NCBI GenBank assembly: GCA_050249455.1
Contig: JBFWQM010000002.1
Location: 8,888 to 72,887, forward strand
Direction: 5' to 3'
DNA length: 64,000 nt
Source of the DNA: Rhodospirillaceae bacterium
GTDB taxonomy: Bacteria > Pseudomonadota > Alphaproteobacteria > MPNO01 > VGEU01
Shown: piece after piece, positions 36,273 to 40,142 of the stretch
Layout of the letters: each line of letters opens with the position of its first letter
Position numbering within the stretch: the stretch's first letter is position 1
Notes under the pieces: model-generated
What the model was told of the DNA's origin: nothing
Database searches by the model: none
What the model saw: the letters and a program-made list of their open reading frames with translations, nothing else
Position numbers and translations under genes: made by a program

Positions 36273-36420
36273 GGCGGCCGCCCACCTCACCCTCCCCATC
36301 GCGTTGCGATGGGTCCCCTCCCTCTCCCCCCATGGCGGGCGGAGAGGGACGCTTCATGCCCTCTCCGCCCATTGGGGGAGAGGGTGCGAGCGCAGCGAAC
36401 GGGTGAGATGGGCGGCCGCC
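36273..36420. repeat. 148-bp composite palindromic (MITE/REP-like) element
   Basis: The 20-nt termini GGCGGCCGCCCACCTCACCC and GGGTGAGATGGGCGGCCGCC are inverted repeats (19/20). Inside are two CCCTCTCC...GGAGAGGG hairpins. Confidence 0.6.
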
Positions 36421-36469: not shown

Positions 36470-37240
36470 ATGCCGTCGTTCGACAAGCCGCGCCTGCGCC
36501 AGATCTGGCGGCGCCTCGCCGCCGTGCCGGCTGCGGCGTCCGACGCGGACACGCAGGCCGAGGCGGCGCAGGAACGGCTCGATTTCGTCGCCATGCTGGC
36601 CGGGCTCAAGCCGGCCTACCTGCTCGGGCGCGGCTACGACGACCCGACGTGGCGCGAGGCGGTGCTGAACCTGGCCAGGGACCTTGGCCTCCACGTCGTG
36701 ATCGGCCCGTTCTGGCAGGCGATCGGCACCGAGGGGACGTGGCCCGACTGGTACGCCGCGCATGTGCGCGCGGAGACCACGGGGCTGTCGGCCTGGTACA
36801 TCTGCCGCGCCCGCGCCGTCGCGGCGGAACTGCAGGGGCTCGCCGCGACCGGCCGGCCGACGGTGGCGCAGGAGGCGCGCCTGCTCGGCTATCCCGAATG
36901 CTGCGTGCGCGCGCACTACGAGCGTGCGCGGATCTTCCACGAGCTGTGGCTCGCCATGCTGGACCGCGCGGCCGGCGGCGACGTGGCGGCGATGCAGCAG
37001 ATCCTGCGCGCCGGCACCTGGATCGAGCCGGCGACCGACGCGGAGCGGGAGACGATGGCGGCGGCGCTCGACATGGCGCCGGCACCGTTCACCTCGGTCA
37101 ACATGTGCGCCGCCTGCGCGGCGGACCCCGACGGCCCCGCGCGCCGGCTGTCGGCGAAGTACCGGGCGCTGCTGACCAGCCTTGACCCCCTCGCGGCGGC
37201 CGCGGCGGAACCACCGCCGCGCGCGCTGCCGCGGCACTGA
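36470..37240 (+). CDS. hypothetical protein with paired Cys motifs
   Basis: 256 aa with natural composition. Contains LLGYPECCV and NMCAACAAD (four Cys in two pairs). I do not recognise the family. Confidence 0.5.
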   Translation: MPSFDKPRLRQIWRRLAAVPAAASDADTQAEAAQERLDFVAMLAGLKPAYLLGRGYDDPTWREAVLNLARDLGLHVVIGPFWQAIGTEGTWPDWYAAHVRAETTGLSAWYICRARAVAAELQGLAATGRPTVAQEARLLGYPECCVRAHYERARIFHELWLAMLDRAAGGDVAAMQQILRAGTWIEPATDAERETMAAALDMAPAPFTSVNMCAACAADPDGPARRLSAKYRALLTSLDPLAAAAAEPPPRALPRH

Positions 37241-37243
37241 CCG

Positions 37244-38695
37244 TTAGGCCGCCCGCGAGTCGGTCAGCCAAGCCCGCGCGGTCTCGAGGTCGCCGACCAG
37301 CCGCGCCAGTTCGTCGGCGCGCGCCGACTCTTCCGGCAGCCGCAGCACGTAGGACGGGTGCGCCGTGACCAGCACCGGGCCGCTGTCGTCGGCGGCGGCC
37401 AGGATGCGCCCGCGCATCCGCGCGATGGCGACCGGCCGGCCGAGGAGCGCCCGCGCCGCGGTGGCACCCAGCGCCACCGTCAGCCGCGGCGCGACCAGGC
37501 GGCGCTCCTCCGCCAGCCACCATTTGCACGCCTCGATCTCGGCGGCCTCCGGGCGCTGGTGCAGCCGGCGCTTGCCGCGGCGGACGTGCTTGAAGTGCTT
37601 CACCGCGTTGGTCAGGTAGACCGCATTGCGGTCGATTGCGGCGGCAGCCAGCGCGCGGTCGAGCACGCCGCCGGCCGGCCCCACGAACGGCCGGCCCTGC
37701 AGATCTTCCTGGTCGCCCGGCTGCTCGCCGACCAACATCAGCTCGGCCGTCGCCGGCCCCTCGCCGAACACAGTCTGCGTCGCGTCGCGCCACAGCGGGC
37801 AGTGGCGGCAGCCATCTGCCGAACGGCGCAGCTCCTCGACCGAGAGCGCCGGCACGTCGAGCTCGGCCAGGCGCTCGCGCCGCGTCGCTAGCCGGTCGTG
37901 GAACGGCGGCGGCGCGCCGGGCGGCGCGGCGACCATCGCGTCGGTGCGCCGCGCGGCGTCGGCGACCAGGTCCGGGATCAGCGCTGCCTCCGGCAAATTG
38001 CGCCAGTACTTCTTCGGCATTTCGCGCGTCATCGCGTCCACGTTCAGCCGTGCCGGGTTGAACGTGCTGGCGTAGTAGGTGCGCCACAGCGCTTCCAGCT
38101 CGTCGTCCGGCGGGGCGCTGCGGCGCGCCACGCCGGGCGAGTAGGCGAGCGTCTTGCCGTCCCAGTGGGCGCACTTCTCCGGCGTCAGGATCGACCAGCG
38201 CATGGTGGCGAAGCGTTCGGCGAAGAACGGCGCGGCGCGCGCGACGATGTGGTGCTCCGGCTCGAACCAGGCGACATAATGCGGCCCGTCGTCGGCGTCG
38301 ACGCGGCGGAACCGGACGAAAGCGTGCATCTTGTGCACGTCGCGGCGCACCGCCTTCGCCATCGCCTCGGCGGCGGCAACGTCGGGGTCGGCGGCGTAGT
38401 CGAGCATCTGCGGCACCGCGCGCAGCCGCCACAGCAGGCGATAGAGCAGGGCGAAGCGCTCCGCGTCGCGGTGGCACACGACGTCCGCGGCGAGGTCGCG
38501 GAACCGGCGCGGCACCGTGAAGCTCGCGTCGGGTGCCGCCGCCGGCGGCAGCACGGTGTCGGCGAACAGGTCCTCGGACTCGCCCGGCGCCACCCAGCTC
38601 ACCGCGTCGGGCACCACGTCGGCCCGCACCAGCGCGCGGGCGGCATTGCGCCAGCCGTCGAAGTCGTCGGGCGCGGCGAGGCGGACCTGGTGCAT
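37244..38695 (-). CDS. DUF4130-type domain fused to a UdgX-like family-4 uracil-DNA glycosylase domain
   Basis: Start MHQVRLAAPDDFDGWR. The C-terminal half has GEQPGDQED (UDG family-4 motif A), the KRRLH loop (compare KRRIH in UdgX) and HPSYVLR (motif B). The start overlaps the stop of the radical SAM gene (TGATG). Confidence 0.8.
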   Translation of the reverse strand: MHQVRLAAPDDFDGWRNAARALVRADVVPDAVSWVAPGESEDLFADTVLPPAAAPDASFTVPRRFRDLAADVVCHRDAERFALLYRLLWRLRAVPQMLDYAADPDVAAAEAMAKAVRRDVHKMHAFVRFRRVDADDGPHYVAWFEPEHHIVARAAPFFAERFATMRWSILTPEKCAHWDGKTLAYSPGVARRSAPPDDELEALWRTYYASTFNPARLNVDAMTREMPKKYWRNLPEAALIPDLVADAARRTDAMVAAPPGAPPPFHDRLATRRERLAELDVPALSVEELRRSADGCRHCPLWRDATQTVFGEGPATAELMLVGEQPGDQEDLQGRPFVGPAGGVLDRALAAAAIDRNAVYLTNAVKHFKHVRRGKRRLHQRPEAAEIEACKWWLAEERRLVAPRLTVALGATAARALLGRPVAIARMRGRILAAADDSGPVLVTAHPSYVLRLPEESARADELARLVGDLETARAWLTDSRAA

Positions 38696-39945
38696 CAGAA
38701 CAGCGCCATCTGGCGCGGCCGCGGCGGGGGCGGTCGCAGTGACGCGCGGTCGGCGAGGCCGGTCGGCCGCCAGCCGTCGGCGACGATGAACGGGCGCGCG
38801 CGGCCGAGCGCGCGGGTCAGTCGGCCGACGTCGGCGAGCGTCAGCCGGGCGTGGCGGCGCGAGGCGATCATGCGGTCGACCGCGCGCACGCCGAGGCCCG
38901 GCACGCGCAGCAGCACCTCGCGCGGGGCGCGGTTGACGTCGACCGGGAAGGCGCCGCGGTGCTTCAGCGCCCACGCCAGCTTGGGGTCGATGTCGAGGTC
39001 CAGCATGCCGCCGTCCGTCCCGGCCACCACCTCGTCGAGATCGAAGCCGTAGTATCGCATCAGCCAGTCGGCCTGGTACAGGCGATGCTCGCGCCGCAGC
39101 GGCGCCGGCTGCAGCGGCAGCCGCGGGCTGGCGTCGGGGATCGGGCTGAACGCCGAGTAGTAGACCCGCTTCAGCCCGTGGTCGCGGTAGAGACCGGCGC
39201 TGCGCGTCAGCAGCCGCGCGTCGTCCAGCCCGTCGGCGCCGACGATGAGCTGCGTGCTCTGCCCAGCGGGCGCGAAGCGCGGCGGCCGCGCGCGCGCCGC
39301 CCGGTCGGGCTTCGCCGCGTCAATCCAGCCGCGCAGCCGGCCCATCGCGCCGACGATCGCGCGCTCGTCCTTCTCCGGGGCCAGCCTCTGCAGTGCCGCG
39401 GCGGAGGCGAGCTCGATGTTGATCGACAGCCGGTCGGCGTGCCGCCCCGCCTCGCGCAGGAGCGCCGGGTCGGCATTGGGGATCGCCTTCAAGTGGATGT
39501 AGCCGCGGAAGTCGTGGCCCTCGCGCAGCGTGCGGACCACGTCGATCAGCGCCTCCATCGTGTAGTCGGGGCTCTGGATGATGCCGGAGGAGAGGAACAG
39601 CCCCTCGATGCAGTTGCGCCGGTAGAAGGCGAGCGTCAGGCCGACCAACTCGTCGGTGGTGAAACGCGCGCGCGGCGTGTTGCTCGACGACCGGTTGATG
39701 CAGAAGGCGCAGTCGTAGATGCAGAAATTGGTCAGCAGCACCTTGAGCAGCGAGATGCAGCGCCCGTCCGGCGCATAGGCGTGGCATATCCCCATGCCGT
39801 TGGTCGAGCCGATGCCGTGGCCCCCCAACGAGTTCCGCCGCTCCCCGCCGCTCGACGCGCAGGAGGCGTCGTACTTCGCCGCGTCGGCGAGTACCGCGAG
39901 CTTCGCGGCCAGCGGATCGGCGTTGTCGGAGACCGAGATGTTCAT
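38695..39945 (-). CDS. putative DNA modification/repair radical SAM protein with a C-terminal helix-hairpin-helix region
   Basis: Contains CIYDCAFC (CxxxCxxC), a TIM-barrel-like middle region and LLRVPGLGVRAVDRMIASR (HhH-like). Confidence 0.8.
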   Translation of the reverse strand: MNISVSDNADPLAAKLAVLADAAKYDASCASSGGERRNSLGGHGIGSTNGMGICHAYAPDGRCISLLKVLLTNFCIYDCAFCINRSSSNTPRARFTTDELVGLTLAFYRRNCIEGLFLSSGIIQSPDYTMEALIDVVRTLREGHDFRGYIHLKAIPNADPALLREAGRHADRLSINIELASAAALQRLAPEKDERAIVGAMGRLRGWIDAAKPDRAARARPPRFAPAGQSTQLIVGADGLDDARLLTRSAGLYRDHGLKRVYYSAFSPIPDASPRLPLQPAPLRREHRLYQADWLMRYYGFDLDEVVAGTDGGMLDLDIDPKLAWALKHRGAFPVDVNRAPREVLLRVPGLGVRAVDRMIASRRHARLTLADVGRLTRALGRARPFIVADGWRPTGLADRASLRPPPPRPRQMALF

Positions 39946-39954
39946 GTTTTGTAC
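39940..39954. promoter_or_regulatory. SOS-box-like motif overlapping the radical SAM start codon
   Basis: GTTCATGTTTTGTAC reads as GTTC-N7-GTAC. This is one mismatch from the GTTC-N7-GTTC direct-repeat LexA box reported for alphaproteobacteria. Confidence 0.3.
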
Positions 39955-40070
39955 ACTTAGGGCGAGGCCCGTCGTCCGTCAATGTCTCCCCTGTAACGCG
40001 CCATCTGCGGTTTCGGGTGAGTCGCGCCGGCAAGCGGCCGGGCGGTGACGAGGGACGCCGCCGGCTCCGG

Positions 40071-40101
40071 ACAAACAAAAGGGCGGGTCGATGACCCGCC
40101 C
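40071..40101 (-). terminator. rho-independent terminator after the DapA-like gene
   Basis: The stem GGGCGGGTC-gat-GACCCGCCC is followed on the minus strand by TTTTGTTTGT. Confidence 0.7.
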
Positions 40102-40142
40102 TCCGTCACCTTCGCCTTGAGCGAGGCGGGCGACCTCGCCGC

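Follow-up and report, generated by a model that had tools for sequence, protein, structure and literature searches.

A LexA-boxed radical-SAM/DUF4130-UdgX gene pair in a Rhodospirillaceae genome belongs to a known DNA-damage-response operon family

We analysed a 64,000-nucleotide stretch of DNA (the window; contig JBFWQM010000002.1 of assembly GCA_050249455.1, positions 8,888 to 72,887) from a Rhodospirillaceae bacterium whose metagenome-assembled genome was obtained from a landfill metagenome. The window carries on its minus strand a pair of genes in which a first-pass annotation, made from the letters of the sequence, had seen a damage-inducible system for the processing of DNA lesions. Gene 1 (38695-39945 including the stop codon, coding 38698-39945) is an open reading frame (ORF) of 416 codons for a radical S-adenosylmethionine (radical-SAM) protein of 416 amino acids, while Gene 2 (37244-38695 including the stop codon, coding 37247-38695) encodes in 483 codons a 483-amino-acid fusion of a DUF4130 domain (TIGR03915) with a uracil-DNA glycosylase (UDG) domain of the UdgX family (TIGR03914). 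As had been noticed before, the stop codon of the former overlaps the start codon of the latter: both lie in a TGATG (38693-38697, minus strand) in which the TGA of Gene 1 (38697-38695) and the ATG of Gene 2 (38695-38693) have the A at 38695 in common. Such an overlap is consistent with translational coupling of the two genes. A probable box for the SOS repressor LexA spans the start codon of Gene 1. Judged by its sequence, the locus is a genuine two-gene DNA-damage-response operon that belongs, as an ordinary member, to a family already known; both the pairing of the genes and their control by LexA have been documented before, and the locus adds no new kind of system.

The assignment of both ORFs to hidden Markov model (HMM) families, a check that the first-pass annotation had proposed, gave TIGR03916 for Gene 1 and TIGR03915 plus TIGR03914/UdgX for Gene 2, all above their cut-offs. 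Gene 1 matched the TIGR03916 model over its full length with 523.6 bits (cut-off, 343.5), and its score with the general model Radical_SAM PF04055, 29.1 bits, was just below the gathering score of 29.5. The CX3CX2C motif of the [4Fe-4S] cluster and SAM, CIYDCAFC, was confirmed at residues 75-82 (39700-39723, minus strand), and its three cysteines (C75, C79 and C82) were invariant in 46 orthologues. The C-terminus resembling a helix-hairpin-helix (HhH) that had been described together with this motif was also found, as a putative DNA-binding segment at residues ~334-364 (38854-38946, minus strand) that contains RVPGLGVRAVDRMI. Its HMM matches were sub-threshold (HHH_3, E=0.011; HHH_5, E=0.044; both under the gathering score), and residues P349, G350 and G352 of its PGLG hairpin were invariant among the 46 orthologues. 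When the protein was compared with PDB sequences, no match at E<=0.1 was obtained. Three further cysteines and one histidine, C29, C54, H55 and C63, lie N-terminal to the cluster motif and were likewise invariant in the 46 orthologues. Possible roles for these residues are the binding of a second metal or cluster and the donation of a hydrogen atom; the structural model of Gene 1 has low confidence around C29-C63.

The last five residues of Gene 1, QMALF (38698-38712, minus strand), resemble a beta-clamp-binding motif, whose consensus is said to have been described by Dalrymple et al. in 2001 as close to QL[SD]LF and typically terminal. The pattern Q[LM]xLF occurs at the C-terminus or within its last few residues in about 74 of the 80 TIGR03916 orthologues that we collected, and in the alignment (n=46) Q412 and L415 were invariant and F416 was kept in at least 90% of the sequences. 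Only 2 of the 4032 crudely predicted proteins of the genome end in such a clamp-like peptide, namely Gene 1 and a second radical-SAM protein, of the PA0069 family, that ends in QLDLF. In the literature searched, we found no mention of radical SAM together with "clamp-binding motif". On the basis of this C-terminal peptide, Gene 1 is probably recruited to sliding clamps at stalled forks or gaps.

By the family models, Gene 2 consists of two halves. Residues 8-237 (37985-38674, minus strand) form the TIGR03915/DUF4130 domain, an obligate partner for the radical-SAM protein (TIGR03915, 232.4 bits versus a cut-off of 112.25; PF13566, 142 bits versus 27, E=1.7e-41), and residues 239-472 (37280-37981, minus strand) a UdgX-type family-4 UDG domain (TIGR03914, 312.1 bits versus a cut-off of 189.95). 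UdgX proteins are defined by a motif A GEQPG in which Q replaces A/G, an R-loop KRRIH with a crosslinking histidine, and a motif B HPS (PMC10359453). The three peptides that had been read as UDG motifs in the C-terminal half were all present, GEQPGDQED at residues 323-331 (37703-37729), KRRLH at 375-379 (37559-37573) and HPSYVLR at 446-452 (37340-37360), all on the minus strand; their GEQPG aligned to motif A, H379 to the crosslinking His109 of KRRIH, and HPS to motif B. Moreover, G323, E324, Q325, P326, G327, R377, H379, H446 and P447 were invariant in 36 aligned fusions. In UdgX, the residues conserved here are responsible for the excision of uracil and for the covalent bond with the abasic site that results (PMC4787834, PMC10359453). 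The UDG half matched the Mycolicibacterium smegmatis UdgX structure 6ajo with E=1.6e-54, and the AlphaFold model of Gene 2 (predicted local distance difference test score, pLDDT, 87.5) superposed on UdgX structures with a template-modelling (TM) score of 0.84 and ~50% identity over the aligned fold matches. The UDG half dominated the top 50 matches of this fold search, among which there was no solved DUF4130 relative.

The SOS-box-like motif that had been reported across the ATG of Gene 1 was found at 39940-39954. Its letters are GTTCATGTTTTGTAC on the plus strand and, in the direction of the gene, GTACAAAACATGAAC, a LexA (SOS) box of the alphaproteobacterial type that contains the start codon (39945-39943, minus strand). 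The box matches GAAC-N7-GAAC at 7 of 8 core bases, one half-site being GTAC instead of GAAC. With one mismatch allowed, the bare pattern GTTC-N7-GTTC is not rare, since 26 matches were counted in the window versus 37 expected; this count was not significant and was therefore dropped in favour of full-site and comparative tests. At full length, the window box is 14/15 identical to the imuA box of its own genome (GAACAAAACATGAAC). Sites one base away from the imuA box numbered 3 in 11.2 million positions, versus 0.02 expected from base composition, and the three were the window box, one site at recA and one 177 nt upstream of a small gene that appears to be GcrA-like from its N-terminal sequence alone. 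The recA gene carries two boxes, GAACGTTCTGGGAAC and GAACAAAACATGTAC, and the proximal one (GAACAAAACATGTAC) has a GTAC half-site and a spacer identical to that of the window box. Exact GAAC-N7-GAAC boxes were found in the same genome at the starts of lexA (TIGR00498), imuA and the PA0069-family radical-SAM gene. The weight-matrix scan that the first-pass annotation had called for came out as expected: with a matrix built from the orthologous sites, the window box ranked 19th among 11.2 million genome positions. The box also fits the motif of the genome's own lexA, imuA and recA. Among the 18 sites with higher scores were those next to imuA, the PA0069-family radical-SAM gene, recA (two) and a dnaE-like gene, and several were of uncertain meaning.

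The scan also brought out high-scoring LexA-type boxes upstream of genes that are not classic members of the SOS response (C160:6253, C252:5287, C105:14069, C406:195, C165:3121 and C26:20479). The genes behind them are mraZ and others that are class II ribonucleotide reductase-like, dnaE-like, HtrA-like (protease), thermonuclease-like and GcrA-like. The mraZ box had the best LexA-type score in the genome, and the ATG of the HtrA-like protease gene falls within its box.

The orthologue set comprised 80 loci, mostly from Alphaproteobacteria, with identities of 62-71%. In 73 of them, an exact box lay between -120 and +30 relative to the radical-SAM start, against a background of 0.0055 per 150 nt in the remainder of these loci, and two further loci, L010 and L023, had one-mismatch boxes at the same place. 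Two betaproteobacterial-looking loci, L057 (Rhizobacter) and L080 (binned as Synechococcus), carried instead CTGT-N8-ACAG boxes of the beta/gamma type, CTGTATATTCGTACAG and CTGTATATTTGCACAG. LexA regulation has thus been kept despite a change of motif between lineages, which is strong evidence of function. A strain ~95% identical to ours, recovered from biofilm and aquatic metagenomes, shows several intergenic substitutions and none in 39937-39985, an observation that is weak when taken alone. We conclude that the window box very probably serves LexA as a functional operator, perhaps a weaker one than an exact box. In the Erythrobacteraceae-type loci L031, L042, L047, L049, L051, L054, L059 and L063, a further exact box, of the same sequence type, lies ~2.3-2.9 kb upstream (about -2300 to -2860 from the radical-SAM start) and presumably belongs to a neighbouring SOS unit.

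By eye, a putative promoter can be read on the minus strand at 39954-39982, with TTGACG (39982-39977), a spacer of 17 nt and TAAGTG (39959-39954). It would place the transcription start ~8 nt downstream, at or next to the ATG, and the messenger would therefore be leaderless or nearly so; there is no Shine-Dalgarno sequence ahead of the ATG of Gene 1. In the orthologues, a -35-like element (TTGaC/CTTGnC) is retained at a matching distance, and a -10-like hexamer falls within the box or on its edge. The commonest layout is GAACATATAAGGAAC-NN-ATG, with a -35-like element 12-20 nt before the box, an AT-rich box spacer that resembles a -10 hexamer, and the ATG ~7 nt after this hexamer. In L048 and L052, where the ATG lies within the box, the -35 element is displaced upstream by an equal amount, as at the window locus. 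Either layout would suit a leaderless mRNA, with LexA covering the -10 element and the start.

The first-pass annotation had made its proposal depend on the two genes being found together in other genomes, and the pair was kept in 78 of the 80 loci, with the DUF4130 gene directly downstream of the radical-SAM gene; UdgX was fused to it in ~75. An overlap of the same class (-1 or -4) as that of the window was seen in ~30 of these 78 loci. In ~20 loci, many from Sphingomonadales or Aurantimonadaceae, 0.3-1.7 kb are inserted between the radical-SAM and DUF4130-UdgX genes (among them L018, L019, L025, L029, L034, L035, L038-L040, L043, L044, L046, L050, L058, L062 and L064). Across the class, TIGR03916 exceeded the cut-off in 13 of 201 sampled genomes (~6%). 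Of 30 relatives sampled from its own family and order, none had it, so that the window operon was the only one in 31 genomes of the order. Matches to TIGR03916 were also obtained in four control genomes that included Caulobacter vibrioides, two of the four being over the cut-off (which two was not distinguished). Given this sporadic distribution, this lineage has probably acquired the operon, or else its relatives have lost it. Base composition gave no clear signal of recent transfer (73-77% G+C versus ~70% for the genome).

As for its surroundings, the operon is bounded upstream by an intrinsic terminator of a DapA-like/bicupin operon (40078-40104, minus strand; a 12-pair stem followed by a T run), which lies 132 nt from the ATG of Gene 1 (39945). 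The gene upstream encodes a DapA/HpaI-like aldolase without relation to repair, and the neighbouring genes are metabolic and efflux genes without relation to the pair. Downstream, a convergent orphan gene without family match (36470-37240) ends 3 nt from the end of Gene 2, and, since no terminator was detected, the transcripts of the two probably overlap. The upstream terminator and the convergent downstream gene thus delimit a unit of two genes with its own promoter region. A palindromic repeat of 148 bp adjoins the operon (36273-36420) and belongs to a family that is spread over 72 contigs of the genome with 84-93% identity. A contaminant contig or binning error was considered and rejected on the strength of this repeat and of the tetranucleotide profile of the contig, which out of 80 is the third closest to the genome mean. 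A known anti-phage defence system was rejected as well, since neither protein matched any family among the PADLOC models.

Operons of this kind have been described before. SOS regulation of a "UDG base excision repair" operon, composed of COG4277 (radical SAM/HhH) and COG1573 (family-4 UDG), has been reported for Verrucomicrobia, Alphaproteobacteria (da Rocha 2008 being cited for Caulobacter) and Bacteroidetes (PMC8565304), and DUF4130, radical-SAM genes and UDG have been linked to the SOS network (PMC3765255). The window operon has the same two families in the same order, and its LexA box likewise lies where the radical-SAM gene begins; it differs in the single mismatch of this box and in that the start codon falls within it. 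The proposal of a damage-inducible two-gene system for lesion processing is supported, with LexA binding deduced from a box that has one half-site mismatch, and the idea itself is one that had already been published. The UdgX of M. smegmatis (PDB 6ajo, 6ail and 6iod) has GEQPG, KRR(I/L)H with the aligned histidine, and HPS in common with Gene 2. As crystallised, however, it is a stand-alone protein of ~205-230 residues, whereas in Gene 2 the UdgX domain makes up the C-terminal half of a fusion with DUF4130, the gene for which is coupled to that of a radical-SAM protein; crosslinking by such fusions is a prediction.

The other LexA-boxed radical-SAM gene of the genome, the PA0069-family gene already mentioned (NF033668; the "SplB", COG1533, of the SOS literature), lies at G000:C99:225-1322 on the minus strand. 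In 30 alphaproteobacterial loci of this family (L088-L117), an exact GTTC-N7-GTTC box was found upstream in 28, and ~26 of the proteins end in Q[LMF]x[LF][FLI]. Like Gene 1, these are radical-SAM proteins with a LexA box and a clamp-binding-like end. They nevertheless form a different family without DUF4130 or UDG partner, the orientation of the box relative to the gene is the opposite one, and the family is much commoner (54 of 101 genomes versus 13 of 201 for TIGR03916). The SRAP/YedK/HMCES proteins offer an analogy only: they are SOS-linked, bind DNA covalently at abasic sites and are associated with translesion polymerases (PMC3765255), but their fold and chemistry are unrelated, the link being an N-terminal cysteine thiazolidine instead of the His-C1' bond of UdgX.

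We take the locus to be an operon of two genes that stands alone, is repressed by LexA and belongs to the TIGR03916/TIGR03915/TIGR03914 family, and we give this reading, with the mechanism that follows, a probability of about 0.8. Before damage, LexA would sit on the box GTACAAAACATGAAC and cover both the start codon and the point at which transcription probably begins. DNA damage would bring about the RecA-stimulated cleavage of LexA and free the promoter, and the two genes would then be made in fixed proportion by way of the TGATG overlap. The product of Gene 1 is predicted to be a radical enzyme that uses a [4Fe-4S] cluster and SAM and binds DNA through its HhH-like tail, and its clamp-like end would probably direct it to clamps that remain at stalled forks or gaps. 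The DUF4130 domain of Gene 2 may bind the radical-SAM enzyme and help to hold the nucleic-acid substrate. Such a complex is supported by a prediction made with AlphaFold 3, at strict confidence, for a DUF4130/radical-SAM pair of Lachnospiraceae (bioRxiv 10.64898/2026.08.19.745780). The UdgX domain would excise uracil and then bond covalently to the abasic site through the histidine of KRRLH, and, so bound, it may anchor or shield the abasic site while the radical enzyme acts.

Several points weigh against this reading or parts of it. The HhH match of Gene 1 is sub-threshold, and its clamp motif is a sequence pattern only. The structural model of the radical-SAM protein is of moderate confidence (pLDDT 75.6) and retrieved nothing beyond generic radical-SAM cores (PFL-AE, viperin, HydG/HydE, MiaB and TYW1) with query-normalised TM scores of 0.26-0.41; its fold thus gives no hint of the substrate. 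A consensus scanner found no Escherichia coli-type promoter upstream of Gene 1, and the sequencing runs that contain the sequence are all metagenomic DNA, with no RNA runs among them. Since exact half-sites are the rule in the orthologues, the mismatch in a core half-site (GTAC) means that repression may be weaker here. Finally, the TIGR03916 family is described as one in which only ~40% of the partner proteins carry a UDG domain and most members are without it; if this is so, the removal of uracil would be accessory and not the core chemistry.

The core mismatch also lends itself to another explanation, namely that the operon has been identified correctly while its box has decayed from GAAC to GTAC and is a relic of the donor lineage, with expression being constitutive or subject to another signal. 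That none of the 30 relatives from its family and order has the operon, and only 13 of the 201 genomes of the class, would suit this explanation, since an operon so rare may be a horizontal arrival whose regulation was not maintained. We consider it unlikely, because the recA gene of the same genome uses the GTAC half-site with an identical spacer, and because 14/15 identity to the imuA box is found where 0.02 such sites are expected by chance. In addition, L010 and L023 have one-mismatch boxes at the same place, and, as weaker support, the ~5%-diverged strain keeps the box and the promoter region unchanged.

Two other explanations accept the operon and concern what the radical-SAM protein does. 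It might be a light-independent photoproduct lyase that splits UV pyrimidine dimers in the manner of spore photoproduct lyase, with UdgX then removing the uracils that arise from deaminated cytosines in the dimers. SOS control would be in keeping with a response to UV, dimers with deaminated cytosine would give a UDG partner a chemical rationale, and these radical-SAM proteins were grouped with "SplB-like photolyases" in PMC3765255. However, membership in the spore photoproduct lyase (SplB) family was rejected here, since neither the NCBIfam nor the Pfam scan returned such a family and no such structure was among the top 50 fold matches, and the SplB (COG1533) of the SOS literature corresponds to the other radical-SAM gene of the genome, that of the PA0069 family; we therefore regard a lyase of this type as distinctly unlikely. 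Alternatively, the pair might modify nucleic acid and not repair it, either by a base modification of RNA or DNA like those of MiaB or RlmN or by a DNA modification in phage defence, the UDG fusion being accessory. The family name leaves "modification" open, the predicted complex has been likened to MiaB and seen to have a narrow single-strand channel (preprint 10.64898/2026.08.19.745780), the distribution is patchy, and the three extra invariant cysteines and one histidine ahead of the cluster motif could hold a second cluster. To this we give very little credence, as LexA boxes of two types are conserved across lineages, no defence-system model was matched, the UdgX partner is DNA-specific, the radical-SAM protein ends in a clamp-like peptide, and the genes nearby, for metabolism and efflux, bear no relation to the pair.

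Within the reading of a LexA-repressed operon, a further and speculative idea, with long odds against it, is that both SOS-induced radical-SAM enzymes of this genome are clients of the sliding clamp, and that the TIGR03916-DUF4130 pair acts as a clamp-recruited radical enzyme at stalled forks or gaps. In its boldest version, this enzyme would reverse or process the covalent adduct of UdgX with the abasic site, or another replication-blocking lesion. Were this true, UdgX would be a resettable shield of abasic sites and not a suicide protein, and the pair would define a radical-based pathway for the reversal of DNA-protein crosslinks or lesions.

The operon family to which the window pair belongs is widespread and forms part of the SOS response of several phyla. 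In this genome, a one-mismatch box can be compared with exact boxes of the same genome in order to calibrate the binding of LexA, and the geometry of the promoter predicts a leaderless mRNA. Lastly, Gene 1 has a conserved clamp-like C-terminus, as do SOS radical-SAM proteins of the other family, and this feature suggests that the replication fork is where it acts.

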